Shown piece by piece: positions 1,665 through 40,149 of a DNA stretch of 64,000 nt. Position numbers and translations under genes: made by a program. Within the stretch, counting starts at the first letter, position 1; each line of letters starts with the position of its first letter. The notes below the pieces were generated by a model. It was given only the letters and a program-made list of their open reading frames with translations, was not told the origin of the DNA and ran no database searches. This DNA comes from PVC group bacterium (GTDB lineage Bacteria; Omnitrophota; Gorgyraeia; B26-G9): the NCBI GenBank assembly GCA_024231215.1, contig JAAEQR010000099.1, forward strand, positions 50,401 to 114,400, in the 5' to 3' direction.

Positions 1665-4325
1665 GTGACTCAGCTTACAAAAAATTGTATCTTAGGAATA
1701 GCTTTATTCTCTATGCTTTTATTGCCGGTGATCGGACTTAAGGCTCAAGAAGCTTCGTTCGAATTACATGCTCCAGGCACACAGTTTCCGGTTGATTATA
1801 CTGCGTTTGGTGAATTTTATGATGTAAATACCGAAAACTTTTTTTACAACACCCTTGATCCTGTTGGATTAAAAGCTGCGGTAGGCGAAGGAATATATCC
1901 TAATACTACAAGCATCTACGCCGATCCTGGGTATCAACAGTATTTAAGTGAAGGAAAATTAGGTGGAAGTCATTGGGATTTTATTAATACTGATGACCCA
2001 CAAGCTGATTTTTATAAATGGGCTACGGCACCCGAAGAACCTGGAGTAAAACTGTTCTTCACAGCTCAAGCATTAATAAATGCCGGACATATTGAACACG
2101 CGATAAAAGCTTTTCACGCAATTATTATTCATTACCAAAAATCTCCGTGTTATGATCCCTGGGGTGATTTTTATTGGTATGTTGGCCCATCCTCAGTCAG
2201 CATGATTGATACTCTTTGCCGCGATTATCCGGAATTAGAAGTAAAATTAACCACTGCAAAAGTACGGATTCAAAACGGAAGCGATCTTGATCTTAGCAAC
2301 GACATTGCAGTTACTGATCCGGGCAGCTTTATCAGTTATACACACGCCGATAGATTAGCCGCTGTGAGCGATCCATCAACATTAACCATCGCCGAACAAA
2401 GAGGCACTGGAAAAGTACAAGTAGTAAAATATTCAAGTGGACATTGGCAGCTTATCGTCGACGGAAAACCGTTTATTATTAAAGGTATGACTTATGGGCC
2501 AACACAAGTCGGCATGGGTTCTCAAGAACAAGGGGAATGGATATCTTTAGATTCGAATAATAACGACAAGATAGATGCTCCTTATGACTCATGGGTAGAT
2601 CGAAATAATAATAATATTCAGGATTTTAATGAACCTACTGTCGGAGATTTTCAACTTTTAAAAGAATTAGGCTGCAATTCCATTCGATTGTTTCATTCTG
2701 CCGGAGACGATAATATCACATACGATCCTGGTGAGCTGGATAAAACAATCCTTAGAGATCTATATAATACTTATGGCATACGAGTAATCTTGGGGGATTT
2801 TCTTGGAGCGTATACAATTGGTTCCGGTGCAGACTGGTCAGTTGGAACAGACTATACAGACCCTCAGCAAAGAGAAAACATGAAAAACGTAGTTAGAGAT
2901 TTAGTGCTGGACCATAAAGATGAACCATATGTACTGCTCTGGCTGCTTGGAAATGAAAATAATATGGAATCTGAATACGGCGGAGTAAATGCTACCCGTA
3001 CCAATGCTGCAGTTTATCCTCAGGAATACGCGGAATTTTTAAATGAAGTAGCTGCGATGATTCATGCTATTGATCCGGACCATCCGGTTGCTCTGGGTAA
3101 TTTAGGCACTGGCCTGCTTGAATATTATGGTGATTACGCCCAGGAAATAGATATTTTAGCAACAAATTGGTATACTGGTAAATATGGCATTGGTTTCTCT
3201 TATTTAGATGAAATAAAAGAAAAATTTGACCGGCCGGTATTTCTTCCGGAATATGGTTGTGATGCCTATCATTACGAGCAAGGCGAAAATCAGGCAGAGC
3301 AAGCCGCACATCACAAAGGCTGCTGGAGAGCAATTATGTATAACACAGCTCACAATCCGGCAATAGGTAATATGCTTGGTGCGATGGTCTTTGAATGGTT
3401 GGATGAATGGTGGAAAGATACACAGTCTGGAGACTCTGTATATAGTCACCAAACAGAGCCTCAGTTTCACTGGGGAATCCTCCCTGATGGCTGGTCGCAT
3501 GAAGAATGGTTTGGTATTTGCAGTCAAGGTAACGGCAGCAACAGTCCATTCCTTCGACAATTGAGGGAAGCTTATTATGTATATAAATCTTTGTGGTCAC
3601 CGCCTCTGACAAAATACGGACATAATATAATTTTAAGCTGGAATAGTTATCCAGGAATTACTTATGACATATATTATAGTGATGATGGATCAACTTGGCA
3701 TTTAGCCCAATCTGAGATCCCGGCATCAGGAATAAGCACAACCACCTGGCCGGATAATGGCGAATATACAGGAACTCATCCCAAAAATGTTTCGATTAGA
3801 TATTATCGAGTTGCTGTACACGGTAAGTCCCCGGCTTTATATGTACTTCAGGAAAATACAGGCTCTGACGCTGAAGGCACTATTTCCGGAACAGTTACCT
3901 TACAGTCAAGAACCGACCACAGCGCTACGCTTACATTTGAACTTAGGGAGCCAGGAGAAACAACATCTCTCTACACTTACGAAGTTAACACTTCCACTAA
4001 CGGAAGTTTTTCTCTGGAAGATATTCCCAGCGGCACATATGATCTTACCGTGAAAAATTTTAATTCGCTGCGTGCAAAACAAACAAATATTATAATTAAT
4101 GAGGGTGAAACTACTGCAAATATAAATTTCTATCTTTTCGGAGGAGATGCAAATAATGATAATTATGTCTCCTGGTATGATTTTGGGATATTAAGAAATT
4201 CCTATCGTTCAAGCACTGGACATCCTCGCTGGGACGCCCGGGCTGATTTTAACAATGATGGATATGTATCTTGGTATGATTTTGGAATCCTGCGCAGTAA
4301 TTACAGGCGTCAGGGCGCAGAATAA
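1665..4325 (+). CDS. Secreted dockerin-bearing glycoside hydrolase with a clan GH-A-like TIM barrel
   Basis: N-terminal signal peptide. WLLGNENN motif (acid/base Glu of retaining TIM-barrel glycosidases) and a later FEWLDEWW candidate nucleophile. C-terminal beta-sandwich regions. Two tandem dockerin-like Ca-binding repeats: DANNDNYVSWYDFGIL and DFNNDGYVSWYDFGIL. Confidence 0.75.
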   Translation: MTQLTKNCILGIALFSMLLLPVIGLKAQEASFELHAPGTQFPVDYTAFGEFYDVNTENFFYNTLDPVGLKAAVGEGIYPNTTSIYADPGYQQYLSEGKLGGSHWDFINTDDPQADFYKWATAPEEPGVKLFFTAQALINAGHIEHAIKAFHAIIIHYQKSPCYDPWGDFYWYVGPSSVSMIDTLCRDYPELEVKLTTAKVRIQNGSDLDLSNDIAVTDPGSFISYTHADRLAAVSDPSTLTIAEQRGTGKVQVVKYSSGHWQLIVDGKPFIIKGMTYGPTQVGMGSQEQGEWISLDSNNNDKIDAPYDSWVDRNNNNIQDFNEPTVGDFQLLKELGCNSIRLFHSAGDDNITYDPGELDKTILRDLYNTYGIRVILGDFLGAYTIGSGADWSVGTDYTDPQQRENMKNVVRDLVLDHKDEPYVLLWLLGNENNMESEYGGVNATRTNAAVYPQEYAEFLNEVAAMIHAIDPDHPVALGNLGTGLLEYYGDYAQEIDILATNWYTGKYGIGFSYLDEIKEKFDRPVFLPEYGCDAYHYEQGENQAEQAAHHKGCWRAIMYNTAHNPAIGNMLGAMVFEWLDEWWKDTQSGDSVYSHQTEPQFHWGILPDGWSHEEWFGICSQGNGSNSPFLRQLREAYYVYKSLWSPPLTKYGHNIILSWNSYPGITYDIYYSDDGSTWHLAQSEIPASGISTTTWPDNGEYTGTHPKNVSIRYYRVAVHGKSPALYVLQENTGSDAEGTISGTVTLQSRTDHSATLTFELREPGETTSLYTYEVNTSTNGSFSLEDIPSGTYDLTVKNFNSLRAKQTNIIINEGETTANINFYLFGGDANNDNYVSWYDFGILRNSYRSSTGHPRWDARADFNNDGYVSWYDFGILRSNYRRQGAE

Positions 4326-4357
4326 TAATTTAATTTGACAAAAAAAGGAGTCGTATT

Positions 4358-4981
4358 ATGAAAAAACTAACAATTATATTATTGGTGTTCGGATTCATAG
4401 CTATACCTTCTATGCAGGCTAATGCTCAGGAAATCTTCAGCCTGGTCCCGGACAAAACTACGGTTGATGTTGGCGAAACTTTCAATGTGGATGTTATATT
4501 CAATAATCCTCAAGGAACCCCGTTTATTGAGCTGTGGTCCTGGATACAGTTTGATCCACAATATCTTACGGTTGTTGATCCCGGTGAAGATGGAAGCTGG
4601 ATAACCTCTCCGGACACAAACATCTCTGATGCCGCATCTCATTCAAACTTCTCTTTTTCCTGGCATATAGACAACAAGGTTGATAATGTTTTTGGCGATA
4701 TCGACTATGCCGAAAGCGTTAGTACCAACGATCCCATTACCAGTAGCGGCACTTTTGCCTCAATAACATTTCAGGCACTTGAAGTTACAAATAATACGTC
4801 TATAGATTTCGTCACCGATGGCACCCCTATTAGAAATAGTCTTGTGGTAGGCGCTGACGGATTTACAAATATCTTAGACGATGCATTTGCTACGAATATA
4901 ACAGTTATTCCGGAACCAACAAGTATATTATTATTTGGTTTTGGATTATTAGGAATATCTCTTCACAGGCGAAAAAAATAA
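4358..4981 (+). CDS. PEP-CTERM-anchored secreted protein with a cohesin-like beta-sandwich domain
   Basis: Signal peptide. C-terminal VIPEPTSILLFGFGLLGISLHRRKK is a classic PEP-CTERM exosortase signal (PEP motif, TM helix, basic tail). The mature region fits the cohesin pattern: V.VGETF.V.V, W.QFDP.YL.VVD and GTFASITFQAL. The cohesin assignment is only moderate. Confidence 0.7.
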   Translation: MKKLTIILLVFGFIAIPSMQANAQEIFSLVPDKTTVDVGETFNVDVIFNNPQGTPFIELWSWIQFDPQYLTVVDPGEDGSWITSPDTNISDAASHSNFSFSWHIDNKVDNVFGDIDYAESVSTNDPITSSGTFASITFQALEVTNNTSIDFVTDGTPIRNSLVVGADGFTNILDDAFATNITVIPEPTSILLFGFGLLGISLHRRKK

Positions 4982-5011
4982 TATTTAATATATAAAAAAT
5001 TCAATATACAT

Positions 5012-5042
5012 GAGACTAAAGCGGTCTGGCTTCTTTAGTCTC
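5012..5042. terminator. Perfect 10-bp-stem palindromic hairpin at a convergent gene junction; member of a repeated hairpin family
   Basis: GAGACTAAAG (5012-5021), loop cggtctggctt, CTTTAGTCTC (5033-5042). Lies between the plus-strand PEP-CTERM gene and minus-strand pilO. Related copies at 33271-33300 and 57834-57870. Confidence 0.6.
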
Positions 5043-5073
5043 GTTGCTTTAAGGACAATTAGATTATTGAGGG

Positions 5074-5637
5074 TCATTCTGAGGGGAGCGTTCCGGGGAT
5101 AATAATGCTAAGTACGCCATCGATCACTAATTTTGCCTGATTTTTATCGCTGAAATTTACCACCATTCTATCGAGTTTTATCAGTTGTTTACTGTCCCTT
5201 ATTTGAAGTTGTAATTTCAATAGTTCTTCAAAGGTCAATTCCATCTGTACATCAGCCATATACTTCGCATACATATCTCTTGTCTCAGGATTTTCGTGTA
5301 CAGCCAGCTTGGTTATCGAACCGCCGGATAAGCGAATAATATTTTCTGTCTCATGCAGCAAAATAGTTTTTATATCTTTCTCCTCCGCCTTCCCCAGTTT
5401 CAAGAAAGGCTTACATTGTTCATAGTCCGCGTATAGCTGGTCTTTGACAGCATGAATCGCCAAATATTCCTGGAGCCGCACCTCTGCGATTTTTATTTGA
5501 TCCTTCAAGATTTTTGACTGCTGACGCAGGCTTACAATAAAAACCCTTTCAAAAACAAACATTGCCAGAAGTATCGCGCAAATTCCGATAATAATTTTTT
5601 TGTTTTTTAACATCTGTATGCTTTTATTCTTAGCCAT
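5074..5637 (-). CDS. pilO: PilO-like type IV pilus alignment protein: N-terminal TM, coiled coil, periplasmic domain
   Basis: Bitopic topology and size typical of PilO. It immediately follows the pilMN fusion with a 5-nt gap. Confidence 0.55.
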   Translation of the reverse strand: MAKNKSIQMLKNKKIIIGICAILLAMFVFERVFIVSLRQQSKILKDQIKIAEVRLQEYLAIHAVKDQLYADYEQCKPFLKLGKAEEKDIKTILLHETENIIRLSGGSITKLAVHENPETRDMYAKYMADVQMELTFEELLKLQLQIRDSKQLIKLDRMVVNFSDKNQAKLVIDGVLSIIIPGTLPSE

Positions 5638-5642
5638 TATTT

Positions 5643-7052
5643 TTAAAGCTCCGCCAGAAATTTCACTTCAAAATTCACCAATTCCAGTCCTTTTATTTTT
5701 CGCTTACGAGTGTTCCGAGTCTCTACCTCTTTAAACTGTTTTGATTCTTCTAGTTTTGTAGTTAGACCAAATATGTCAGACAGCTGCTGCGCTGTACCTT
5801 TTAAAACCACGTTATTATCTGCATCAATGCTTAAGTTCGTTATCACCACCGATTCGCTCACTGCTTTTTGAAGTTGGAACAATACAAATAGGGGGATTTG
5901 GCGTTCTGCCAACAATTCCTTTGTTGTTTTTATTTTTTTTCTCTGATGCACAACTTCACCCAGTTGCTTTTCAATCACCGAAGCCTGTTCGTTTAGTCTT
6001 GCTAAATATGCCCGATTTTGTTGTTGGCGCCCTAAAAAGATAAAAAAGATAACCCCTAAAATATAAATCGATCCCAAACCAATAGTCATCAACTCTTTCA
6101 TCCTCCGACGAAGATCCTTGCGAATCTGTATCTCCGGCAAGGTAAAACTAAACTGCCTCTGTATATTATCAAAAAACAATGCCGCTACCCCGCTCACTGA
6201 AGCATCTTTGGGAATTGTTCTCTTTTTTGCCCGAAGGCATTTGTCCATTCCTGGGATTTTTACGCTTTGCACTGGGAATTCCAATTCTTGCTCAATACTT
6301 GGCGCCAATATTTCAGCAAAGGCTCCGCTTAAAAAAACCTGTGACGGCTTTGCACTCTGTTCTTCACTATTGAAAATTATTAAGGCCTGCCGAATATCAC
6401 CCATCAATCGATTTCTTCCTGTTTTTTCTTCTAATTGAATATTTTTAAAAGAAATGCTTCGCGAAAAAACTAACCGACCGCCTTTTAAAATAATAAGATC
6501 TGTAAAAAAAGTATCTACATCTAAAATTAAATAGACCTCTTCTTTGCTTATCTTCATTTTTGAGGTTTTTAATATAAGGTGATACAGCCCTTCGGAGCTA
6601 AACATTATGCTGTCTACAGGAAAGCCTGTCTTTTCGATAATCCGCATCTGCTTACGCATGATTTCTTTAGTAACAATCGCCACTAATATTCGCGAATACC
6701 CTCTTTCATCTTGTCCACATATCTGATAGCTGTAAAACATTTCTTCTTTTTTATACGGAACAATCCGGTTAATATGCAGCTCTACCATCTTGATCAATTC
6801 TTTTTTATCTTTGGACGGCAAGGACAAGTTTCTCACGGTAACAAAGTTACGAGGTAAAGACAAAGCTACTGAGGTAGGTTTATATTTGTTTTTCTTAAAA
6901 ACATCTATGATCGTATCTGTAATAGCCGCGTCATCAAGCCCGGCAATCCGTTTTACAATACAATCTGTAAATTTTGGCTGCGCGCCCATTTGATCCGCGG
7001 TTATTATTTTTAAATATTGCTCTCCGATTTCAATTCCGGCAAATAATTTCAT
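5643..7052 (-). CDS. pilMN: PilM-PilN fusion: actin-like PilM ATPase-fold domain, then a TM helix and a PilN periplasmic domain
   Basis: N-terminal LFAGIEIGEQYLKIIT matches the PilM start. A TM helix MTIGLGSIYILGVIFFIFLG follows, then a PilN-like coiled coil and C-terminal domain. Confidence 0.75.
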   Translation of the reverse strand: MKLFAGIEIGEQYLKIITADQMGAQPKFTDCIVKRIAGLDDAAITDTIIDVFKKNKYKPTSVALSLPRNFVTVRNLSLPSKDKKELIKMVELHINRIVPYKKEEMFYSYQICGQDERGYSRILVAIVTKEIMRKQMRIIEKTGFPVDSIMFSSEGLYHLILKTSKMKISKEEVYLILDVDTFFTDLIILKGGRLVFSRSISFKNIQLEEKTGRNRLMGDIRQALIIFNSEEQSAKPSQVFLSGAFAEILAPSIEQELEFPVQSVKIPGMDKCLRAKKRTIPKDASVSGVAALFFDNIQRQFSFTLPEIQIRKDLRRRMKELMTIGLGSIYILGVIFFIFLGRQQQNRAYLARLNEQASVIEKQLGEVVHQRKKIKTTKELLAERQIPLFVLFQLQKAVSESVVITNLSIDADNNVVLKGTAQQLSDIFGLTTKLEESKQFKEVETRNTRKRKIKGLELVNFEVKFLAEL

Positions 7053-7077
7053 AGCATTTAAATATCTTCGGTTGTTA

Positions 7078-8463
7078 TTATGCTGGCAAACTACCGATCA
7101 TATAAAACTTTTCTTCACTAATATGATCCACTCTGCCGCTTAAAATTTTCTGGCATCCGGATAATGTATCCTCCAAAGAAACATAATGTCCCTTTTTCCC
7201 TGTATAGCTTTCCACAACAAAAAACGGCTGGGTCAAAAAATTCTGCAGTTTCCTTGCCCGGTCAAAAATAACCTGTTCTTCATGTGTAAGCTCAGACTTC
7301 CCGATAATCGATACAATTCTCTGCAACTCGTCATAGCGCTGAAAATAACGCAATACTTCCTGGCTTATGCTATAATGTGCAGCCCCGATAATGTCCGACG
7401 AAATAAACGCGGAGCTTGATTCCAGCGGATGAATTGCCGGATACAAACCATGTTGTACGTATTCCCGGGACAATACCATAATCGAATCTAAATGGCTGAA
7501 TATGGTTACTACCGCAGGATCTGTTAAATCATCTGCCGGGACATAAACCGCTTCCACGCTGGTAATACTACCGTCTTCTGTAGAAGCAATGCGTTCATGA
7601 AATTCGCCAATTTCACTGGTTAATGTCGGCTGATATCCTGTCTCCGACGGAATCCTTCCCAGCAAGGCAGACACCTCGCTTCCTGCCTGCGCGAAACGAA
7701 ACACATTATCCACAAAAAATAATACATCCTGGCCATCTTCCCTCAACGATTCGGCAATAGTAACCGACGTTCTGGCGCTCTCAAATCTCGCTCCCGGAGA
7801 TTCATTCATTTGCCCGAAGACAAGAATAGAATTCTTTAATAGATCACGTTCTAAAAATTCATAATACAATTCATTCCCTTCCCTGATCCGTTCGCCAATC
7901 CCGCTAAATACACAAGTACCTTTTTGTTTATGAATAATATTATGGATAAGCTCTAAAATAATTATTGATTTGCCGCAAGCCGCGCCACCCAGAATGCCTG
8001 TTTTAGATCCTTTAACAAAAGGAAATAACAAATCAATAACTTTAACGCCTGTTTCTAGAATTTCATGCGTTAGCTTTTCACCTTTTTTTGTTTTTACATC
8101 TCTACGCATTTTAGACCTGTGTGTTGATAAAAATTTGTCAGCTTTCACCGGCCCTTTTTTGTCTATGGGCTTACCCATAACATTCAATAATCTACCATAT
8201 AAATATTTCGCTTCAGGAACCGTTAAACCCTTTCGAGTCCTTTCCACTGAAGTATTGCGACGCAGTCCATATGTAAAAGACAGCGCAATACATCGGCAGA
8301 TATTGTCCAGCTTATGTTCTATAACCTCTAAAACCACTTCTTCGTCACGATAATTTTTTGCCATAACGATTTCATGAATTCCCGCGATTGCTTTTTTGCT
8401 CGGGAATTGGACATCTACAACCGGTCCATATACAGCAACGATTTTACCAATATCTTCCCTCAT
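7078..8463 (-). CDS. atpD: F-type ATPase beta subunit, divergent P-loop
   Basis: Strong beta-subunit identity blocks: [30 protein letters not shown] and [13 protein letters not shown]. Walker A is GGAACGKS instead of GGAGVGKT. The DELSEED region reads SELTHEE. There is an N-terminal insertion. Confidence 0.85.
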
Positions 8464-9318
8464 TTATTTCTTCACCTTAATCCGCGCAGCAAATAATTCG
8501 CGAATTCGTTTATCTGCCAACGCATGTACACTTTTAAAATATTCTCTAGCTAACTTTCTATTAATTCGAGTTAGCTCCTGATAGCTTGCTTCTAAATGCA
8601 TAAGCCTGGCAGCCAATTCTGCCAGTTTACTAGAATATAGTATCTGACCCAAGCTAGATTCTAAATACAAACCTATCAATCCTTCGATAATACTTTGATC
8701 AGACGGCTCTGTAATTATTGCTTCCTTTGTTTTCTTCCTAACTTTCCCCTCTAATTCCGACATGGGAAAAGGCAGCAGCTGCCGCGTTTTTATTTCGCGC
8801 GCAGTAACTGAAATAAATTCAGCATACACAATAATCGCTTTATTAATTTTCCCGTCTAAATAATCACGAATTAAAAACTTTTTTAGTTTTCGCGCTTCAC
8901 TCAAAAAAGTCTTTTCTTTGACCCCCGGCAAGAACCTAAAAGACTCTTTTTTACCGCGAAAATAATGAGACCCCTTATCTCCTAAAACAATATAAGAATC
9001 TTCCGGGGTTTTTTTCTGACGTAAAGCAGCACTGATCAAAAGCATATTTAAGTCCCCTAAAAACCCTTCGTCAGAGGTAATTACCACAATGGTCTGAGGA
9101 GTCTCCTGTTCCCGCAACAGCAAAGGATGTATAGTGATCTTTTCCTGGCCCAGTTTAGAAAGAACTGAATATATTTCCCGGGGAAATCTTTCTTCTCCCC
9201 ACTGCTGCCGCTGAAACTGCCGCAACTGGATAGATGTCGCAATCTTCAGAATATTAATTATCTGATCTAAGCTTTCATTAAAGCTTAAACTATATTTAAG
9301 TTGGGAAAGTGACTTCAT
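8464..9318 (-). CDS. atpG: F-type ATPase gamma subunit
   Basis: 284 aa with N- and C-terminal helices. Sits between the alpha and beta genes as in atpAGD operons. Confidence 0.7.
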   Translation of the reverse strand: MKSLSQLKYSLSFNESLDQIINILKIATSIQLRQFQRQQWGEERFPREIYSVLSKLGQEKITIHPLLLREQETPQTIVVITSDEGFLGDLNMLLISAALRQKKTPEDSYIVLGDKGSHYFRGKKESFRFLPGVKEKTFLSEARKLKKFLIRDYLDGKINKAIIVYAEFISVTAREIKTRQLLPFPMSELEGKVRKKTKEAIITEPSDQSIIEGLIGLYLESSLGQILYSSKLAELAARLMHLEASYQELTRINRKLAREYFKSVHALADKRIRELFAARIKVKK

Positions 9319-9339
9319 GTAAAATCAATCCCTGTTTCT

Positions 9340-10815
9340 CTAGGTTTTTGCTTTTTTCTTCTTAAAATACTCTATAAGTGCTACATCTAATTGTGTTTTT
9401 ACTATATCGGTCAAGGTTTTTTCATTTTCAATTGCAGTTACTAGATCCGGGTATTTCTTGCACAGAAATGGAAGTATCTCCTGTTTAAACTTGTTCCAAA
9501 GTTCAGGAGGAAGAACCTCCAAAATCTTCTTTTTAAACGCGTAAAAAAGAGCTACTTCCGCAGTTAACGCCAATGGATTATAATTCTCCTGAACAAACAA
9601 TTCTTCTAATACCTTGCCCCGGCGAATAATAGCCTGCGCTTCTTTAGAAAGTCCGGTACGCAAACGCATTAAACGCAGCATTTCCCGGTATTGTAGATAG
9701 TCCAAACGGATTCCTTCGCTTAATTCCCGCAACGCCGGACATTGGACTTTAGAGCCAAGACGTGATACAGAAAGGCCAATATCAATTGCCGGCTTAAACC
9801 CTTCCCGGAATAAATTATTATTTAAAAATATCTGTCCGTCGGTGATTGATACCAGGTTAGAGGGAATAAACCCGGTAATATCTCCCTGCAAAGTTTCTAC
9901 GATAGGCAAAAAACTCATAGTTCCACCGCCTAATTCCGCTTTTAATTTTGCGGCTCTTTCCAGTAACTGGGAATGAATAAAAAAGATATCTCCGGGATAT
10001 GCTTCTCTCCCGGGAGAACGTTCAAGCAATAAAGATATCTGCCGATATGCCCAGGCATGTTTGGTTAAATCATCAAAGACAACAACAACATCCCGGCCCT
10101 GATGCATAAAATATTCACCAATTGCCGCGGCAGTATAAGGAGCAATATACTGCTCTGCCGGAGAACTTGAGGCAGAAGAACAAACCCCAACAACGGTAGG
10201 CATTATATCGGTTTGCACTAGCTGATGAATAATCTTTTCAAATGTGGATTGAGACCCTCCGATAAAACAATAAATGCAAACCACATCTTTATCTCGTTGA
10301 TTAATCATCGTATCCATGGCAATACTCGTGCGTCCTGTCTGCCTGTCTCCGACGATTAATTCTCTTTGCCCTTTACCAATTGGAATAGTTAAATCAATAA
10401 TTTTTATTCCGGTTGATAATTGTTCAGATATGGGATCGCGCTCCATAATTCCCGGAGCTTGCCGAAAAACCGGATAACGATCTACCTCGGGAATAGAACC
10501 TTTATCGTCTACCGGCTGAGCCAGACAATCAACTACTCTACCCAAGAGTTTATTTGACACCGGAACCGCAAGTAATTCACTCGCGCTTTTTAAATAATCA
10601 CCGATTTTGATATCCGGCTCATCAGATAAAACAATAATAAATACTTCATTCGGATCAAACCCGATAACCACGCCCTTGGTCCCATCATTAAATTCTACCA
10701 GCTGCCCATAAAGACACGACGGCAATCCGTCTGCCTTAACAATCCCCTGGGTTATTTCTTTAATGCGGCCAACTTCCCTGATTTCTACCTGCGGTATTTG
10801 TATTTGCTTTTGCAT
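9340..10815 (-). CDS. atpA: F-type ATPase alpha subunit with Lys-to-Arg change in the P-loop
   Basis: GDRQTGRTSIAMDTMINQ versus the canonical GDRQTGKTA.A.D.I.NQ. Remaining alpha-subunit blocks are conserved. Confidence 0.85.
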   Translation of the reverse strand: MQKQIQIPQVEIREVGRIKEITQGIVKADGLPSCLYGQLVEFNDGTKGVVIGFDPNEVFIIVLSDEPDIKIGDYLKSASELLAVPVSNKLLGRVVDCLAQPVDDKGSIPEVDRYPVFRQAPGIMERDPISEQLSTGIKIIDLTIPIGKGQRELIVGDRQTGRTSIAMDTMINQRDKDVVCIYCFIGGSQSTFEKIIHQLVQTDIMPTVVGVCSSASSSPAEQYIAPYTAAAIGEYFMHQGRDVVVVFDDLTKHAWAYRQISLLLERSPGREAYPGDIFFIHSQLLERAAKLKAELGGGTMSFLPIVETLQGDITGFIPSNLVSITDGQIFLNNNLFREGFKPAIDIGLSVSRLGSKVQCPALRELSEGIRLDYLQYREMLRLMRLRTGLSKEAQAIIRRGKVLEELFVQENYNPLALTAEVALFYAFKKKILEVLPPELWNKFKQEILPFLCKKYPDLVTAIENEKTLTDIVKTQLDVALIEYFKKKKAKT

Positions 10816-10830
10816 CTTTCCTTTATATTA

Positions 10831-11568
10831 TCAAAAAGTCAGGTTTTGTTTATCTTGACCCAGTTGCTGCACTGCCTTGCTGAATTTATTATGCAAACTG
10901 CCGTCAATAATAAATGAGCCAATCTCTATAATTAATCCGCCAATCATAGCTTCATCGATTACTTGTTCTATGGCTATTTTTTGACCTAGTTTTTCACTAA
11001 GCATTGTATTTAAACAATCTTTTTGTTGTTCTGTCAACGCGCGAATAGTAATTGCCTTTGCCTGCTCTATTTCAATCGGAAAACGTTCCTTGTCAATGCC
11101 CTTTATTATCTCAATAACTTCATCTATAAGAGAATGGTGCAATGTGTCTTGAGCATGAGAACTGAAGGTAAGACGCACAATCTCCAACGCATAACGCAAC
11201 GCCTGATGATCAAATTTTAGAAATAACTTATTTTTCAGTTTATCTACACGTTCTTTGCTTTCATTTATAATTTTATCTGCTTCTATCTGTCCTTTATCTT
11301 CTTGATTTTTCTGCAATATTTTGCCTATATTTACAGCTTCATCCGTAACGCGCTTTGCCTCCTGCTTAGCTTTTTCCACCCTCGCTGTGGCCTCTTCCTC
11401 TGCCTTAACCAATCCGGTCTTTAATTTCTCTTCAATGATCTCATTTTCTCTTTGCAATGATTGTAATCGCCGCAATGCAGTATTAACACTGCGCGCGTAA
11501 AAAAATCGCAAAGCAATCAGTATTGCAATAAATGTAACTATTTGAATTATAATTAATTGTGTGCCCAT
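10831..11568 (-). CDS. atpFH: F-type ATPase b subunit fused to a truncated delta (OSCP) C-terminal domain
   Basis: TM helix, long charged coiled coil, then an OSCP-like C-terminal motif GGLIIEIGSFIIDGSLHNKF. Start taken at MGTQ (11568), which abuts the c-subunit stop; the ORF-track start at 11631 is probably over-extended. Confidence 0.6.
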   Translation of the reverse strand: MGTQLIIIQIVTFIAILIALRFFYARSVNTALRRLQSLQRENEIIEEKLKTGLVKAEEEATARVEKAKQEAKRVTDEAVNIGKILQKNQEDKGQIEADKIINESKERVDKLKNKLFLKFDHQALRYALEIVRLTFSSHAQDTLHHSLIDEVIEIIKGIDKERFPIEIEQAKAITIRALTEQQKDCLNTMLSEKLGQKIAIEQVIDEAMIGGLIIEIGSFIIDGSLHNKFSKAVQQLGQDKQNLTF

Positions 11569-11569
11569 A

Positions 11570-11779
11570 TTATTTAAACAAGTTATACACCACAAGTAAC
11601 GCAAGTACTGCGATCGCTTCCGCGAATACAAACGCTGTGATCATAATTACAAAAATCTTAGGCGCCGCGCCTGGATTACGTCCTACTGCACGCACTGCAT
11701 TACGCCCAACCATTCCAATCACAAGTGCCGGGCCCATTGTACTTAAAAGCATAATTAAAGTTACGGTAAAATTCTGCAT
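11570..11779 (-). CDS. atpE: F-type ATPase c subunit (proteolipid)
   Basis: 69 aa two-helix hairpin. Polar loop GRNPGA. Conserved ion-binding Glu in helix 2 (FAEAIAVLAL). Confidence 0.8.
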   Translation of the reverse strand: MQNFTVTLIMLLSTMGPALVIGMVGRNAVRAVGRNPGAAPKIFVIMITAFVFAEAIAVLALLVVYNLFK

Positions 11780-11833
11780 AATTTATTTTTATCTACAAAC
11801 TATTGACCATGGACCATCGACTATTAACTATTT

Positions 11834-12061
11834 TCATCGTTCCACTAAAATCGTAAGCCGGTTATTTTCCATGCTCGCAACACCATCTGTCACGGAAAAA
11901 GAATCAGAGTCATTTATGGTAATAATGCCATTTTTTAGACGAGACAGGAAATTCTCATGCATGTCCAGTACGCAGAGCTCGCCCTCAACTGTGGGCAATA
12001 CTACCCTTACGGCCGATTTTTCATAAAGAATTTCTTTTGTATCTAAAATAGAAACATCCAT
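11834..12061 (-). CDS. atpC: F-type ATPase epsilon subunit, beta-sandwich domain only (75 aa)
   Basis: N-terminal beta-sandwich similarity (LPTVEGELCVLDMHENFLSRLKNGIITI). The usual C-terminal helical inhibitory hairpin is absent. The gene sits first in the operon rather than last. Confidence 0.6.
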   Translation of the reverse strand: MDVSILDTKEILYEKSAVRVVLPTVEGELCVLDMHENFLSRLKNGIITINDSDSFSVTDGVASMENNRLTILVER

Positions 12062-12093
12062 GCTTAGTTGAAGGTACTACTCTCCTATTTTGT

Positions 12094-12122
12094 ATTATAA
12101 TCTCCCTGAGGATATTATTCAA
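12094..12122 (-). promoter_or_regulatory. Near-consensus sigma70 promoter (TTGAAT-17-TATAAT) driving the atp-pilMNO operon
   Basis: On the minus strand: TTGAAT (12122-12117), 17-nt spacer, TATAAT (12099-12094). Lies about 33 nt upstream of the epsilon start codon. Confidence 0.45.
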
Positions 12123-12290
12123 GAAATGTATTTACAAAGCAACTGACACAAGTAAAGCAAAAATTCTCTTTGAGCCAGAACCAGTCTTTCAGACGATATA
12201 GGGGAACCGGCGCAAGCGAAACCCGAAGGGTTCCACAAGCGTAGCGAAGTGCAAAGAAAGATTGTTGCAAAACGAGAGAGCAATCAAAGA

Positions 12291-13106
12291 TTATTCCCCC
12301 TTATTCATGATATCTTCAATATCTTCAGCATTAATCTGCTGTTCTTCCTCTGCGGTATACTGTTCCGGAGCTAATTCTTCTTCTTTCGCCGCAGCATCTT
12401 CCTTAACTGAAGACTTCATCATCTGTGCCTGTCTTTGCCAGATAATATAAAGTGTCGTTGCCAATACCCCGAGAAACCCAACCACTGAAAAGAACACCTT
12501 CCAGATCGTAATTGCCGGCAAACGCTTCCCTTCGGTAAGAAAACTACGCGCTAATATCAAATCATTTTTCGCGGCTTCTAATAAATCAAGGTTTTCCCGG
12601 TAATTTGAAATATGCTGCTGGGGGTTTGCCGCGGAGAGGTTCTGTCTCTTAATGATCTTGTCTAGCTTTACTTCAATACTTTGTTTTAAAAACTGGGCGC
12701 GTTCCTCAAACTCAGTATTTTTAATAAAACTTATTGTCTTATTTATTTCTTTTCTTAAATTTTCGATCTCCGCCTCTGAAACCAGCCAGATATTTTTGAT
12801 TGTAACTTCGCGTTCAATTGTTTCTCCGGGAGCCAATTCGTATTCTCCAAAAACCTTATACGCCCCCTGCTGAGTATCATAAGTCAGGTTAAAATCACCT
12901 CTATCAATGATATCTTCCGGAGTAACTTCTTTCGGTAAATGCGCCTGTAATGTCATGCTCTGCGTATTTGTCTTCGACGGGTTAACCCCAAGAAGTTTTA
13001 GCGTAATTTTTGTTTGAACCGCATATACTGTAGCCGCAAAACAAAAAACACTAAGACACAACATCCCCCAAAACAACAGCTTCTTAAATCCATTTAATAC
13101 ATTCAT
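12291..13106 (-). CDS. Bitopic membrane protein of unknown function
   Basis: Signal-anchor N-terminus, periplasmic region of about 200 aa, a second TM helix, and an acidic cytoplasmic tail. Lies 17 nt downstream of the giant gene on the same strand. Confidence 0.6.
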   Translation of the reverse strand: MNVLNGFKKLLFWGMLCLSVFCFAATVYAVQTKITLKLLGVNPSKTNTQSMTLQAHLPKEVTPEDIIDRGDFNLTYDTQQGAYKVFGEYELAPGETIEREVTIKNIWLVSEAEIENLRKEINKTISFIKNTEFEERAQFLKQSIEVKLDKIIKRQNLSAANPQQHISNYRENLDLLEAAKNDLILARSFLTEGKRLPAITIWKVFFSVVGFLGVLATTLYIIWQRQAQMMKSSVKEDAAAKEEELAPEQYTAEEEQQINAEDIEDIMNKGE

Positions 13107-13122
13107 CCTTTATCCCCTTATG

Positions 13123-16100
13123 TTAAAACTCATACCAAACCTGACTCATCGGCTTATCACTGATATTCTCAATCATCTGATTGTTCAGCTCAAGCATTGC
13201 TTTCATTTCCTGCGTCTTATTTTTTAGATATTTTATATCTTTTTTCTTTTCTGCCGCCACTTCCAAGCGATTTTCTATTCCCACACTTTCCAGCTTTCCA
13301 AATTCTTTTATCTGAGAACCCATATCTGAAAGCTGTTTATAAATTATATTCAACTCTTTAGACATACCCGATCCCTGTTTTGCTTCGTTGAGAAAATCCT
13401 TGGCTATTCTGGTAAAAGATGTTTCAATCAATCCAACCTGATTATTCAAGATATCCACTATCCCGCCAATATCACTTAATCCAGAAGTCGCGCCTAAAAT
13501 TGCCGAGGTCTGGCCAGCGATATCGTCTACTGTATTACGAACAACTGTGATTGTCAAAGAATCAAGCGTACCCCGGGTTTCTTCCGAACATATGATCGTG
13601 TAATCACCAATCCCCCATGCCGAGTAAAACTTGACCGGATATTCATAGATACCCGTAGTCCCCATTTCCACCATGCTTCCCTTAATGATGCGCTGTACGT
13701 TCTTTACATCATACACATCTATTTTTGGAGACATCCCGGAATAAGTCTGATATCTTACATTTATCTCGTCCCCGCTTTTTGCCTGTTTTTCTCTGTTTAA
13801 AATCTTTGATTTCATGGTTGTCTGCAACTCATCTTCTGCCGCGGCTAAAGAACCTTCTAAACTTTCACGCGTAGCCGATAGTTCTTCTGTTAATGCTGTG
13901 GTTGTTTCTTCCATGGTCTCTGTAAGATTATCCGTTGCTTCTTCCAAGGTGCCTTCTAAGGAGTCCCGGGTATCTTCCAGTTCTGTGATCATCGATTCTG
14001 TTCCTTCTCCCACAGACTCCTCGATCTGCGCAACAGACGCGGCCAGTTGCGTCGCAGTTTGCGTAAAGAACTCGTATTGCAATATCTCTGAACCCACATC
14101 AATATTCGCACTAGATGTATAGTCTCTGCCTCGATAAAGCACTGTCAGTGTGGCCGGGTATACATACCCTGCTTCAAATCCCGTGCCAGGCAATGTAAGT
14201 GTATACATACCGTTCTCATTCGGAGCATTTGCTGAGACATTATTACGCACAGTTGTTCCATCCGGAGTATAAATACTCAACACTGCCGGCCCCATATCCG
14301 CACGTTCTAAGGCATTTGTTCCTACCAGTTTTCCTTTTCTCTGCAAAGAACCAACCGCACTTAAAGTATCACTTCCCGGGCTAAAACTGTATGTCAAAAT
14401 CGCTTCCCAGGTAACCTGCGCGGATGCTGAGTTTTCCAAATATATATTTACAATATAAGTGTCTGTCCCGGATTTCGGAACAACCCAGGTAACACTATTA
14501 TCGATAAAATTTGTCTTCGAGAGAAACGTTGTATACGTAGCATACGGATATGATGCTGAACGAGTAATAGCTGAATTAAGTCCGGAGTCATTCCATCCCG
14601 TACCCGGCTCATTTACATTCACATCCTGCAAATGCTGTAATGTATCATAATCCAAAATATTAAAAACAACCGAAGCATATACAATATTAAAAACCGCGTC
14701 ATTAACATCAAATACCGTAGAATCATCCGGATCTGAAACCCGAACCATAGCCTCAGTTGTCTGTGCATCCGGTAATATCCAAACATATGATCCAATATTA
14801 TCTACATTCGCCGCGATTAGATTCCAATTCAAACCATTATCCGTACTATAATCTAGTTTTATTTTTGCGATCGTTCCTCGAGTCTGCCACATGACTGTAT
14901 GATCTGATTTAGCAACCCAATCTTCATCACCATTCGGAACATTAATCGTAAACCCACCTCTTATCCGGAAAAATCCGGCCGATTGATTTGTTATCTCACT
15001 CCGATTACCGTCCGTAATACGCAGCTTCAACGTCGGACCGGTAAGAGCATCATCCGGAATATCCCAGGTATAAAGCCCGTCATTTGCTTCTCCCACGGCA
15101 ATTATCCTTCTTGTCGCAAAACCATCCCCGGACATATCAATAACCAGATTATCCGAAATAGATAAACCTTCCCAGGTCCAGGTTATTGTGGTCATATCTC
15201 CTAACACAAATTCTTCTCCGCCATCCGGAGCAGTAACATCAAATGTCGGGATCGGAATAATTCTAAAAAACTCGTCCGAGACATCTGTACTTACCGGACG
15301 ATTCCCGTCTGTGAGTTTAAATAAAGCATTATTAGTTACGTCATCCGGAACATCCCATGTATATTCCCCGTCATTCAACTCTCCTGATCCAATTACAAAA
15401 TAAGTAGAACCTCCATCAGGAGAATATTCTGCAACCAGATTATCGCTTATTGATCCCTCAGTAGTCCAAGTCGCCGGAGCCTGGTCTGCTACGGCCCAGA
15501 CTTCTCCTCCGTTGGGTGCAGTTATTGTAATTAACGGATCTGCTATAGCAAACACATCATCTGAAACATCTTCGTTCGAAGGCCTATCCGCATCAAAAAC
15601 CTTTACCAAACAAATGGCACTTACATCATCTGGAATTGTCCATGAATACGCGCCCATATTTGCCGCACCGGTTGTAATGTCCTGATATACAGTTCCTCCG
15701 TCAGATGAATATTGAACAGTTAAGTTATTGGATATCAACCCGCCGTTATCTTCCCATGTAACATCTTGTATGGTTCCTACTCGCCAAATCTCGCTACCGT
15801 TCGGCGTAAGAATAGTAAGCTGCGGTATTGGTAAAACTGTAAACATTCCGTCTGACCTGTCCCAAACTACCGGCCTGGTATTATCTGTTATTCTTACACG
15901 CATACTTGCGGAGACATCATTTGGAATCGTCCAATTATGGCTTCCGCTATTGGTTGTCGATCCAATTATTGTATTAACGTCTGAAATAAAATTATCTTTT
16001 GAATATTCAATAAGCAAGTCATTGCCCACGCTTCCGGTATTATCCCAGGTGATTATTTCTGCATCTGATACAGTCCAAAGTTCGCCGCCATTTGGCACCG

Positions 16101-27429: not shown

Positions 27430-27525
27430 TATGCAGCTCCTTTCGCTGGTAATTTCATCAGTCAATAGCTAATAGTCTATGGTTTTGATTTTTCTTTGTA
27501 ATGCTATTAACCCTAGACTTCTTCC

Positions 27526-27770: not shown

Positions 27771-28058
27771 TTATTTAGCCGCCGTTTTTTCAAGTTTTCT
27801 GCGACGTAATGCACTTTGTGCAACCTCTTGAGCTAAAGCTTCATACTCAGCTATCTGCTGCTCATATTCTTTGTACATTTCATCAATAGCTAAAGTTTCC
27901 TGCTTTGCCATTTCAATATCGTATTTAGCCTCTTCTCCCTGGGCAATATTTTGTGTCCATAATCCGGCAAAAACAATCATTACGCACAAAACAAAAATAC
28001 TGGCACCGAGAAACCCCATGACTATCTTTAAAATTGTATTTGATATACTTGCTTTCAC
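27771..28058 (-). CDS. Small bitopic membrane protein with coiled coil
   Basis: N-terminal TM helix and a Q/E/A-rich coiled coil. Overlaps the upstream gene by 4 nt. Confidence 0.5.
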   Translation of the reverse strand: MKASISNTILKIVMGFLGASIFVLCVMIVFAGLWTQNIAQGEEAKYDIEMAKQETLAIDEMYKEYEQQIAEYEALAQEVAQSALRRRKLEKTAAK

Positions 28059-31609: not shown

Positions 31610-31611
31610 CA

Positions 31612-40129: not shown

Positions 40130-40149
40130 TTTTCCCAAGTAATTAAACT

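Follow-up and report, generated by a model that had tools for sequence, protein, structure and literature searches.

A cut-down copy of the Omnitrophota F-type ATPase and type IVa pilus/type II secretion gene cluster in a PVC group bacterium

Introduction

Of 111 Velamenicoccia species, 56 carry genes for an F-type ATPase next to a type IVa pilus cluster, the adjacency occurs in every class of the Omnitrophota, and on 57 of 66 contigs the ATPase and pilus genes lie no more than 10 kb apart (Seymour et al. 2023, PMC10066038). The same study describes an Rnf-based, largely non-respiratory Omnitrophota metabolism, regards the clade as non-respiratory, and reports horizontal transfer together with repeated loss (PMC10066038). 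By KEGG orthologue (KO) calls, a 2026 preprint finds that most complete Omnitrophota genomes lack a complete F1Fo.

Here we analyse a 64-kb stretch of an Omnitrophota contig, hereafter the window, in which an F-type ATPase gene set runs directly into pilMN and pilO. A first-pass annotation held that such a combination had not been described. The report of Seymour et al. (PMC10066038) overturns that claim, as F-type ATPase genes have been known since 2023 to accompany pilus/type II secretion genes across the Omnitrophota, and the window is a cut-down copy of this arrangement. The window was compared with 41 distinct related loci, among which 33 Omnitrophota loci have sequence downstream of beta.

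Results

Eight ORFs occupy the minus strand from 12061 to 5074 and encode, in order, epsilon, c, a b-delta fusion, alpha, gamma, beta, a PilM-PilN fusion (PilMN) and a PilO-family protein. ORF coordinates, with Pfam matches for all but the PilO-family gene, bear out the eight genes at the positions assigned to them in the first-pass annotation. The tight spacing it described holds as well, with successive gaps from epsilon to pilO of 54, 1, 15, 21, 0, 25 and 5 nt (range 0–54), including the 25 nt it gave between the beta stop and the pilMN start. The eight genes probably form one operon. Its proposed promoter, a sigma-70-like candidate upstream of epsilon (TTGAAT-17-TATAAT, 12094–12122, minus strand, 10 of 12 matches), is present and is the joint best match within 4800–13400, but this consensus may not apply in Omnitrophota and promoter-like sites around the atp-pil genes are no commoner than chance (29 found, 24.5 ± 4.5 expected from shuffled sequence). 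At the other end, the 10-bp hairpin claimed as a terminator 3' of pilO (5012–5042, minus strand) exists, convergent with a plus-strand gene at 4358–4981. It is a possible terminator that was not called by a terminator scan because of its 11-nt loop and the lack of an immediate U-tract, and its folding (MFE -14.6 kcal/mol, z = -1.96) was equalled in 8 of 200 shuffles.

The atp genes (all on the minus strand) encode an orthodox F1 head with a divergent gamma and an epsilon reduced to its N-terminal domain, and also a b-delta stator anchored in the membrane and a c-ring subunit bearing the ion-binding Glu. Alpha (9340–10815, 491 aa) passes the atpA equivalog models NF009884 (571.6 ≥ 554) and TIGR00962 (539.6 ≥ 484.45) and scores 427–473 bits against solved bacterial F1 alpha chains. 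Its Walker A reads GDRQTGRT, a Lys to Arg change confined to the subclade of the window, L002, L004 and L025, and it starts approximately 13 residues later than Bacillus alpha. Beta (7078–8463, 461 aa) has intact catalytic motifs, among them a 17-residue stretch and DNVFRF. It passes the atpD model TIGR01039 (562.5 ≥ 462.85) and scores 410–483 bits against solved F1 beta chains versus 348 bits against the M. mobile G1-ATPase beta chain (9io5). Motifs conserved from locus to locus are the beta Walker A, the catalytic GER-x-REG and, in alpha, the SVSR arginine finger. Both alpha and beta fail the NCBIfam cut-offs of the N-ATPase and Mycoplasma F1-like families.

The remaining subunits are more divergent. 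Gamma (8464–9318, 284 aa; Pfam ATP-synt, 123 bits) lies under the TIGR01146 cut-off (92.9 versus 194.45). Epsilon (11834–12061, 75 aa; Pfam ATP-synt_DE_N, E 3.7e-16) stands first rather than last in the operon, as previously noted; it consists of the beta-sandwich domain without the C-terminal helices, a short form common to all 18 Omnitrophota orthologues aligned, and falls under the NCBIfam epsilon cut-off (54.7 < 67.25). The c-subunit (11570–11779, 69 aa; Pfam ATP-synt_C, 45.7 bits), which carries the TM2 carboxylate, is likewise under its cut-off (TIGR01260, 22 < 43.95), and the Glu of its F-x-E-x-IA motif and its RNP loop are invariant in 18 loci whose beta identity to the window falls as low as 55%. 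The b-delta fusion (10831–11568, 245 aa) combines an N-terminal TM helix and a b coiled coil (Pfam ATP-synt_B, residues 27–153) with the C-terminal part only of delta/OSCP (the C-terminal 70 positions, OSCP 102–171 of 172). Its true ATG, read from the sequence, is at 11568, 1 nt past the c stop codon, and it scores under the cut-offs of all NCBIfam b, delta and b/delta models.

PilMN (5643–7052, minus strand, 469 aa) matches Pfam PilM_2 and PilN, is full length with an N-terminus homologous to that of the L002 protein, and scores 65.5 bits against an NCBIfam pilM cut-off of 133. The 187-aa ORF at 5074–5637 (minus strand) has no match of its own in Pfam or NCBIfam and is assigned to the PilO/GspM family by orthology: 9 of 12 family members match Pfam PilO (best E 5e-8), 8 of 12 match T2SSM_b, and precomputed PilO matches are on record for L051 and L052. 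Identity to the L002 orthologues is 53% for PilMN and 47–48% for PilO, which is the normal rate for these families relative to beta, with no excess.

Upstream of the atp genes, and also on the minus strand, the window retains much of a secretion and adhesion neighbourhood. A 271-aa membrane-anchored protein (p271, 12291–13106), matched by neither Pfam nor NCBIfam, has orthologues at the same position in L002, L028, L035, L045, L051 and L052. It is preceded by a giant 4432-aa surface/adhesin-like protein (13123–26421) with Kelch propellers, four DUF2341 domains, ILEI and Ig-like repeats. The giant gene has orthologues directly upstream of the atp genes in L002 and L052 (4085 and 4513 aa, respectively), giant ORFs also occur in L028, L035 and L045, and in L051 a 4434-aa ORF of different domain content takes this position. 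Beyond it lie a Y1/REP-associated tyrosine-transposase-like gene (26506–27465, 319 aa; Pfam Y1_Tnp, weak NCBIfam REP_Tyr_transpos), with a 315-aa Y1_Tnp gene at the matching place in the nearest relative (L053), and two TPR proteins of 218 and 366 aa (28055–29808) with weak type_IV_pilW matches, in a PilW/PilF/MshN-like position after the secretin, where L053 likewise has a TPR protein. The 597-aa secretin (29831–31624; Pfam Secretin, Secretin_N and STN) is of the GspD/PilQ/MshL family, falls under the NCBIfam cut-offs for all three, and its orthologue in the nearest relative (P0244) is located upstream of the giant gene. Immediately before the secretin, as in relatives, comes a 187-aa protein (31612–32175) of a weakly GspB/GspC-like family, in which T2SSB is matched by 6 of 9 members and T2SSC by 5 of 9 (best E 3.6e-5), all weakly. 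As PilMN, the secretin, GspE and GspF all fall under NCBIfam equivalog cut-offs, the apparatus is a divergent hybrid system.

The adjacency of atp and pil genes is kept in every related locus, as the first-pass annotation had proposed should be checked. In all 33 Omnitrophota loci whose sequence continues beyond beta, the first pilus gene after it is the PilB/GspE ATPase, which contradicts the implied replacement of PilB by F1. PilC/GspF, PilMN, PilO and pseudopilins follow in every locus whose contig is long enough. The beta-GspE gap can be as small as -4 to 8 nt, with overlapping start and stop codons in some loci, and the L052 operon has gaps of 1–4 nt throughout. Many loci have a response-regulator diguanylate cyclase at the operon head; the GspE of relatives passes the cut-off of an MshE-related c-di-GMP-binding domain, and their GspG passes its own equivalog cut-off. 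The nearest relative encodes in succession an AAA_22 ATPase, the GspB/C-like protein, secretin, TPR protein, Y1_Tnp-like protein, giant protein, p271 and an RR-GGDEF regulator, then epsilon-c-b/delta-alpha-gamma-beta, GspE/PilB (MshEN), GspF/PilC, PilMN, PilO and pseudopilins including GspG and GspK. This gene order is the ancestral one. The two modules are separable, since the complete genome L001 keeps the pilus genes with epsilon, c and b/delta absent and alpha truncated, and the window keeps the atp genes without GspE and GspF.

Genes of the nearest relative that have no counterpart in the window are those for GspE, GspF, the AAA_22 ATPase, the GGDEF regulator and every pseudopilin. These losses fall at four sites (AAA_22; RR-GGDEF; GspE with GspF; the pseudopilin block); the GGDEF regulator is absent from several other loci as well, and most of the other missing genes are present in most. 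A Pfam search of all ORFs of at least 120 aa found no PilB, PilC or PilT in the window, and tblastn with the relatives' GspE, GspF, pseudopilins, AAA_22 and GGDEF proteins recovered no remnants, its sole match being a 40-residue N-terminal pilin segment at 57417–57536. The absence of these pilus genes recorded in the first-pass annotation thus stands. With GspE and GspF lost, beta now adjoins pilMN, an arrangement unique among 34 loci, and since GspE follows beta in all 33 relatives the direct junction is therefore a derived deletion on this contig only. Because the pseudopilins went together with GspE and GspF, the whole piston is missing and not the motor alone. Both junction genes are full length, and synteny with the nearest relative extends approximately 20 kb upstream, including the Y1_Tnp-like gene. 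By these comparisons, the trimming is real and specific to this lineage. No GspE orthologue from this contig or MAG is among the best 120 matches to L002 GspE, and a JGI metagenome scan with PilMN gave no window-like relative. A second GspD gene is present on the same contig.

The operon was said to lack atpB and atpI. This is so, and Pfam searches of all ORFs of at least 120 aa extend the absence of both to the whole window, whose multi-TM ORFs comprise only YidC, Lnt and an M50B-like peptidase. No locus among the 25 with a full atp set has an a-subunit gene within approximately 10 kb, and none is present in four Pfam-annotated neighbourhoods of related loci or in the nearest relative, where two stretches in the region of the cluster together cover approximately 43 kb. 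An atp cluster without an a-subunit gene has a precedent, because in Helicobacter and Campylobacter atpB lies apart from the remaining atp genes.

Discussion

We lean, by a modest degree of belief, towards a model where the locus is a lineage-specific trimmed copy of a conserved Omnitrophota F-ATPase and T2SS/type IVa-pilus-like supercluster, joined in this subclade by a giant surface protein, in which a working ATPase is co-regulated with secretion. The ATPase would most likely be an ion-translocating F-type enzyme with its a-subunit encoded elsewhere, acting either as an ATP-driven pump or as a user of an Rnf-made gradient. Co-transcription with secretion and adhesion genes may switch on membrane energisation or ATP supply together with the attachment/secretion apparatus. 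The F-ATPase would then not be the motor of PilMNO, and piston parts for the remaining secretin-PilMNO scaffold would come from another locus, to which the second GspD on the contig may belong. As a cut-down copy without pilB and pilC, the window gives no proof that F1 drives PilMNO.

Several features of these loci weigh against this model. No neighbourhood examined holds an a-subunit candidate; gamma, epsilon, c and b/delta all fall under the NCBI canonical cut-offs; the stator lacks the delta N-domain and alpha starts late by approximately 13 residues. That the atp-pil order is kept throughout the phylum, with stop codons overlapping start codons, is more than mere co-regulation usually brings. 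The clade is seen as non-respiratory, with horizontal transfer and repeated loss (PMC10066038). A complete F1Fo is missing from most complete Omnitrophota genomes in the 2026 preprint.

Some of these features lend themselves to an alternative that we consider unlikely, the 'symbiotic' ATPase put forward by Seymour et al. (PMC10066038), where F1, c-ring and b-delta form a dedicated a-less rotary ATPase. Such a non-chemiosmotic motor would be mechanically or energetically part of a T2SS/T4P-like machine or of giant-adhesin export, and here would have taken over after GspE and GspF were lost. The consistently missing a-subunit, the conserved and translationally coupled gene order, the divergent gamma, epsilon, c and b-delta and the unusual stator, and the existence of F1-like motors outside ATP synthesis, as in Mycoplasma gliding (PDB 9io5; PMC10066038), are all consistent with this. 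So is the pattern of loss, which removed exactly the PilB-class ATPase, platform protein, AAA_22 ATPase and pilins and left the scaffold, secretin, giant protein and F-ATPase intact, with no excess divergence in PilMN or PilO. However, retention of GspE in 33 of 33 relatives, followed by GspF wherever the contig suffices, indicates that F1 is no normal substitute for them, and with the pseudopilins also gone there is no filament left to drive. The invariant membrane-buried Glu of c would make little sense unless ions are translocated, and translocation needs an a-like partner. L001 has a decaying atp set but has kept its pilus genes, the window alpha and beta do not reach the Mycoplasma F1-like cut-offs, and the second GspD suggests another secretion locus that might provide parts in trans.

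It is distinctly unlikely, in our judgement, that the secretion/pilus module is simply being lost, with pilMN, pilO, the secretin and the TPR genes as non-functional leftovers that have yet to acquire disabling mutations beside an ordinary ATPase. By comparison with the nearest relative, four sites have lost a total of five gene sets required or used by a T2SS/T4P, no orthologous GspE of this contig or MAG appears among the 120 best matches, and multiple loss events are known from the phylum (PMC10066038). Against such decay, all the genes that remain are full length and have conserved termini, the divergence of PilMN and PilO is at the family rate, and the compact 25-nt junction implies that pilMN is still placed for expression. 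That the junction is a chimeric join or collapsed region is highly improbable: the source is a MAG contig (187,731 bp), the junction is unique among 34 loci and the JGI metagenome scan with PilMN yielded no window-like relative, but the flanking genes end and start exactly as their orthologues with none truncated, other sites that differ from the relative are just as clean, and some 20 kb of upstream synteny agrees.

The favoured reading, a trimmed locus with a working ATPase, can be set against known systems. Like the canonical F1Fo operon (atpIBEFHAGDC), the window has alpha and beta that pass equivalogs, catalytic residues, the c carboxylate and RNP loop, and a membrane-anchored b. Unlike it, the set lacks genes for a and atpI, whether within the cluster or in the adjoining 10 kb, places an epsilon without C-terminal helices first, fuses b to the C-terminal delta part only, has gamma, epsilon, c and b-delta under cut-offs, and is embedded in a secretion operon. 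The N-ATPase (atpDCQRBEFAG) also has epsilon before the Fo genes and a b of approximately 245 aa with no separate delta gene, and the window b-delta gives a full-length but weak match to alt_F1F0_F0_B. N-ATPase operons, in contrast, include an a-subunit, AtpQ and AtpR, and the window alpha and beta fail the alt_F1F0 cut-offs (506.9 < 750.5; 488.7 < 752).

Mycoplasma type 2 and type 3 F1-like ATPases (M. mobile G1-ATPase MMOB1660/1670; MSC_0618/0619) resemble the window in having alpha/beta/gamma sets in non-canonical clusters, and mechanical work rather than ATP synthesis has been proposed or shown for them. The window alpha and beta nevertheless fail all four of their cut-offs (431 < 600; 429.5 < 850; 340.7 < 520; 392.8 < 570), and to our knowledge the Mycoplasma clusters contain no c or b subunit. 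FliH-FliI-FliJ of flagellar/T3SS export is, as far as we know, the sole established F1-related ATPase that energises a secretion machine with b/delta- and gamma-like partners. FliI, however, is a homohexamer, and the window alpha and beta score approximately 187–212 bits against a fliI_yscN cut-off of 379.5.

With the T2SS and MSHA-type type IVa pilus the window shares PilM-PilN, PilO/GspM, the secretin and TPR proteins, and its relatives add GspE with MshEN, GspF, GspG (equivalog), a GspK-like protein and an ExeA-like AAA_22 ATPase; the window differs in retaining only scaffold and outer-membrane parts. The closest counterparts are the Omnitrophota 'symbiotic' F-ATPase/type IVa pilus loci, whose ATPase has been called 'type 2/3' (PMC10066038), whereas alpha and beta of the window are canonical atpA and atpD by HMM cut-offs. 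The window departs from these loci in having no GspE/PilB, GspF/PilC, pseudopilins, AAA_22 or GGDEF and in the abutting of beta and pilMN. In common with them, including that of Ca. Velamenicoccus archaeovorus LiM (L011), it has the same atp set in the same order directly upstream of pilus/T2SS-like genes, giant ORFs nearby, and a beta subunit that is 55–81% identical across the Omnitrophota loci.

Organisation of the locus

The locus comprises eight minus-strand ORFs between 12061 and 5074, separated by gaps of 54, 1, 15, 21, 0, 25 and 5 nt, and the tightly spaced gene set of the first-pass annotation is confirmed by ORF coordinates, by Pfam and, for pilO, by orthology. Epsilon (75 aa) is recognised by Pfam as an N-terminal domain only, while c, alpha, gamma and beta each have a Pfam match. 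The third gene, whose ATG at 11568 lies 1 base past the c stop codon, encodes b fused to the C-terminal third of delta/OSCP. Starting 25 nt past the beta stop codon is pilMN, a PilM_2 and PilN fusion by Pfam (42.3 >= 27 and 35.2 >= 22.8, respectively), which scores below the NCBIfam pilM cut-off (65.5 < 133). The last ORF has no match of its own. We assign it to PilO by orthology, on the basis of family orthologues that match Pfam PilO (9/12) and T2SSM_b (8/12); a profile of this PilO-like family gave only chance matches to PDB sequences. In having a PilM actin-like domain fused to PilN and followed by PilO/GspM, the locus matches the PilMNO/GspLM alignment subcomplex.

The locus had been described as a promoter-to-terminator unit, and signals of the expected kind do exist at both ends. 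The upstream promoter-like TTGAAT-17-TATAAT is the joint best in the region, but such sites are not enriched relative to shuffled sequences (29 found, 24.5 +/- 4.5 expected), and the hairpin 3' of pilO (-14.6 kcal/mol, z = -1.96) is no textbook intrinsic terminator. The features that point to a single operon are the 0–54 nt spacing, the common strand, the promoter-like site and the hairpin. Convergent on the operon end, at 1665-4981 on the plus strand, are genes for an 886-aa GH2-like protein that ends in a dockerin and then for a 207-aa PEP-CTERM-anchored cohesin-domain protein, which could be a cohesin-dockerin pair for surface display.

Upstream on the same strand lie genes for a 271-aa membrane protein, a 4432-aa Kelch/DUF2341/Ig-repeat surface protein and a Y1-transposase-like protein, and further upstream two TPR proteins, a secretin and a weakly GspB/GspC-like protein. 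The Y1/REP-associated tyrosine-transposase-like gene directly 5' of the giant gene (26506-27465, minus strand, 319 aa) has a counterpart in the nearest relative (L053:15162-16109, 315 aa). In both it is approximately twice the usual length, and it would seem to be a conserved part of the cluster, not a stray insertion sequence. The window adjoins the replication origin, with dnaA, dnaN, gyrB and gyrA and a skew minimum near 46-48 kb, and derives from a 187,731-bp MAG contig labelled 'PVC group bacterium' whose closest relatives are Omnitrophota. Also near the origin, beside gyrA and serS, RtcB RNA ligase, a 201-aa ORF without family match and archease stand in a row at 38681-41179 on the minus strand, RtcB with archease being a usual pairing.

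Related loci and consensus gene order

Scanning genome and metagenome collections with beta, supplemented by context look-ups, yielded 41 distinct loci. Across 40 distinct Omnitrophota loci, identity to the window beta is 55-81%; its closest matches are named Omnitrophota or PVC group. The consensus order begins with a response-regulator diguanylate cyclase (RR-GGDEF) and continues with epsilon, c, b-delta, alpha, gamma, beta, GspE/PilB, GspF/PilC, PilMN and PilO, after which come GspG and minor pseudopilins (one of them GspK-like), then an ExeA-like AAA_22 ATPase, a GspB/C-like protein and the secretin. Ca. Velamenicoccus archaeovorus LiM (L011) has this order as well. Among loci with at least 600 nt 3' of beta, the atp set adjoins pil-type genes in 33 of 34, and in these GspE/PilB is the next recognised cluster gene after beta, with an intervening response-regulator gene in L001. 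The remaining one, a Saccharibacteria contig, has the canonical beta-epsilon order. The synteny check proposed with the first-pass annotation thus bears out the atp-pil adjacency.

Relatives always carry a PilB-class ATPase, and GspF and pseudopilins are found wherever the contig is long enough. Their GspE passes the cut-off for an MshE-type c-di-GMP-binding domain, their GspG passes its equivalog cut-off, and the operon often starts with the response-regulator diguanylate cyclase. The gap between beta and GspE narrows to between -4 and 8 nt, and in some loci stop and start codons overlap across the atp-pil boundary. In L052 overlaps or gaps of a few bases extend throughout from c to GspG, and the atp and pil genes there therefore form one operon.

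Some loci have further conserved genes at their 5' ends. In L011, L013, L007, L014 and L020 the region 5' of RR-GGDEF has a conserved set of genes, divergently transcribed, for a FIST-domain protein, a GAF-HisKA histidine kinase and response regulators (e.g. L011:1267-3991), a block that suggests a dedicated sensory input to the atp-pil operon and that the window lacks. Several relatives in the giant-gene subclade carry a Peptidase_MA_2 gene 5' of the atp genes, directly before epsilon in L051 and L052 (L051:5582-6370; L052:5615-6391) and before RR-GGDEF in L025 (482-1294); the window has only a 229-nt spacer at this site. An Omnitrophota-type beta and its neighbouring GspE (P0020 and P0161), both on one 4258-bp contig, were deposited as 'Methanosarcinales archaeon'. 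The archaeal label is probably bin contamination, and is notable because V. archaeovorus attacks Methanosaeta.

The window carries a trimmed form of the cluster

The nearest relative, JBDRPX010000015.1 (beta 81% identical), carries in order AAA_22, a GspB/C-like gene, secretin, a 659-aa protein, TPR, a 96-aa ORF, the Y1_Tnp-like gene, the giant protein and the orthologue of the 271-aa membrane protein (p272), followed by RR-GGDEF, six atp genes, GspE, GspF, PilMN, PilO and pseudopilins. The window layout matches this arrangement, including the Y1_Tnp-like gene, and lacks AAA_22, RR-GGDEF, GspE, GspF and all pseudopilins. The converse is seen in L001, from a complete Omnitrophota genome (CP070797.1; L001:7477-11395), where the atp set has decayed. 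There epsilon, c and b-delta are absent, and a single 526-aa ORF has a PAS_3 segment in place of the N-terminal half of alpha, P-loop included, whereas gamma, beta and the downstream GspE, GspF, PilMN, PilO and pseudopilins are intact. The window is the reverse, with atp genes kept and GspE, GspF and pseudopilins lost. The ATPase and pilus modules are separable, each having been lost without the other.

We considered whether a pilin-like ORF (57417-57803) might be the cluster GspG in a new place, and rejected this since its N-terminal helix alone matches. This lone 128-aa prepilin-like ORF lies on the plus strand beside ndk and lnt; its helix, FTLVELLMV, is a typical one but is preceded by Ser instead of Gly, and past residue 40 it has no similarity to the cluster GspG. 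Elsewhere on the source contig, outside the window, is a second GspD secretin (P0250, 575 aa, 59% identical to that of the window), which may mark a second T2SS/T4P-like locus that could provide GspE, GspF and pilins. The best 120 matches to the GspE of L002, the nearest relative's atp-pil stretch, include no GspE from this contig.

The cluster lacks an a-subunit gene

As first noted, the window contains no gene for an a-subunit, atpI, PilB, PilC or PilT, judged by Pfam on all ORFs of 120 aa or more and by tblastn with the relatives' proteins across the whole 64 kb. Neither an a-subunit (ATP-synt_A) nor an unassigned multi-TM ORF lies within ~10 kb of beta in any related locus, 25 of which have a full atp set. 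The subunit is likewise absent from four Pfam-annotated neighbourhoods and from ~43 kb, in two stretches, of the nearest relative. The a-less cluster is therefore a conserved trait and not an accident of assembly. Two candidates for a hidden gene were discarded. The 229-aa, 5-TM ORF at 35612-36301 is M50B-like, and the long stretches between genes in L025 and L004 are AT-rich and non-coding, with a scaffold gap as well in L025.

The F1 head is orthodox and the remaining subunits diverge

Alpha passes two atpA equivalog models (NF009884, 571.6 >= 554; TIGR00962, 539.6 >= 484.45) and beta passes the atpD equivalog TIGR01039 (562.5 >= 462.85). Compared with solved structures, alpha and beta reach 410-483 bits with ordinary F1 chains; the score with the M. 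mobile G1-ATPase beta is 348 bits. Relatives share the catalytic motifs, all of them intact here, namely [17 protein letters not shown] (beta Walker A, catalytic Glu in GER-x-REG) and SVSRLG (alpha Arg finger). The alpha Walker A Lys is replaced by Arg (GDRQTGR[TS]) only in the window (alpha at 9340-10815, minus strand), L002, L004 and L025, and reads GDRQ[TS]GK[TS] or GDRMTGKT in all remaining loci. The substitution may affect the subclade's non-catalytic nucleotide site.

The TM2 Glu and RNP loop of the c-subunit are invariant across 18 loci, and c passes Pfam ATP-synt_C and fails NCBIfam TIGR01260. Curated cut-offs are missed by gamma (92.9 < 194.45), epsilon (54.7 < 67.25) and delta (40.3 < 57.5), and by every score to the b and b/delta NCBIfam models. 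Pfam matches are significant for gamma, epsilon and delta/OSCP, with ATP-synt_B under its gathering score (18.9 < 28). In all loci aligned epsilon lacks its C-terminal helices, and the delta part of the stator is the C-terminal portion only.

Discussion

The window holds a trimmed version of a supercluster that was already known. Its F-type ATPase set lies within 10 kb of type IVa pilus genes and its alpha and beta fall within the Omnitrophota clade; a full pilus set of PilB/GspE, PilC/GspF and pilins does not adjoin the ATPase. Seymour et al. 2023 (PMC10066038) described a 'non-respiratory' F-type ATPase adjoining type IVa pilus clusters, with this adjacency in 56/111 Velamenicoccia species and in every other class, and with the ATPase within 10 kb of pilus genes on 57/66 contigs. 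T2SS-like loci beside Omnitrophota giant genes were reported by West-Roberts et al. 2023 and in a 2026 preprint. Given these reports the arrangement cannot be called undescribed, as it had been at first. In the same three sources we found nothing on the missing a-subunit, the orthodox alpha/beta scores or a variant without PilB and PilC, and the 2026 preprint gives no a-subunit counts.

With modest confidence, we favour an ion-coupled F-type ATPase whose a-subunit would be encoded elsewhere in the genome and which would be co-regulated with an attachment and secretion programme. Two features speak for ion coupling with an a-subunit supplied in trans, namely the orthodox F1 head and the buried c carboxylate, which is invariant. 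Helicobacter and Campylobacter provide a parallel, in that atpB is located away from the remaining atp genes. The enzyme may serve in ATP-driven membrane energisation or may use an Rnf gradient, either of which fits the short epsilon and the largely fermentative, Rnf-based metabolism reported for these bacteria. The position of the atp genes within the operon would then reflect co-regulation.

Alternatively, a motor that truly lacks an a-subunit might be physically tied to the secretion machine, which we regard as unlikely. The conserved a-less cluster and its synteny with the pil genes would suit such a coupling, and the invariant c carboxylate speaks for an ion-coupled enzyme instead. The first interpretation implied that F1 takes the place of PilB as the motor of PilMNO, which has a much lower probability than a-less coupling in general because the pilins are gone too. 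Of that interpretation, the gene content, a-less cluster and atp-pil synteny were borne out, and the novelty and the replacement of PilB were not. In the most explicit version, the a-less F1, c-ring and b-delta would be the rotary motor of a secretin-PilMNO machine, for example for export or display of the giant adhesin, here without a PilB-class ATPase, platform or pseudopilus. This is very improbable, though if true it would be a secretion or adhesion apparatus run by an F-type rotary ATPase.

Decay of a pil remnant is another explanation for the trimmed form, and a rather improbable one. Pseudogene remnants of AAA_22, RR-GGDEF, GspE, GspF or pseudopilins are absent from the 64 kb. PilMN and PilO are 53% and 47% identical to those of L002, which is the normal rate for these fast-evolving proteins, since L002 and L025 share 47% and 36%, respectively, at lower beta identity. 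Misassembly is scarcely credible: a metagenome scan with the window PilMN recovered no window-like relatives, but the beta C-terminus and PilMN N-terminus align completely with orthologues, so the junction is a clean deletion without truncation.

Retention of an F-type ATPase inside a pilus/type II secretion operon has been reported phylum-wide in these ultra-small, probably predatory or parasitic bacteria, and never explained. Our results sharpen the question, as curated cut-offs place the head of the ATPase with orthodox F1 rather than with the Mycoplasma type, no cluster carries an a-subunit yet the c-ring carboxylate is invariant, and either module, ATPase or pilus, can be lost alone. The trimmed variant is a natural deletion mutant that retains scaffold, secretin, giant protein and F-ATPase and has no PilB, PilC or pilins. 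Should closed genomes turn out to have no a-subunit, the locus would put a rotary ATPase to a new use; should they have one, it would be an ordinary ATP synthase in an unusual regulon.

Among known systems, Mycoplasma type 2/3 F1-like ATPases are rejected as all four family cut-offs are failed (MMOB1660/1670, 431.1 < 600 and 429.5 < 850; MSC_0619/0618, 340.7 < 520 and 392.8 < 570). N-ATPase is rejected on the alt_F1F0 alpha, beta and b cut-offs (506.9 < 750.5; 488.7 < 752; 29.1 < 224.7) and on the lack of AtpQ, AtpR and a-subunit, the window cluster having none of these extra membrane ORFs. Scores to FliI/T3SS ATPases are far under cut-off, and this assignment is also rejected. The canonical F1Fo ATP synthase shares with the window its alpha/beta equivalog scores, catalytic motifs, and c carboxylate and polar loop, and the window differs from it in gamma, epsilon, b and delta, which score under the curated values.
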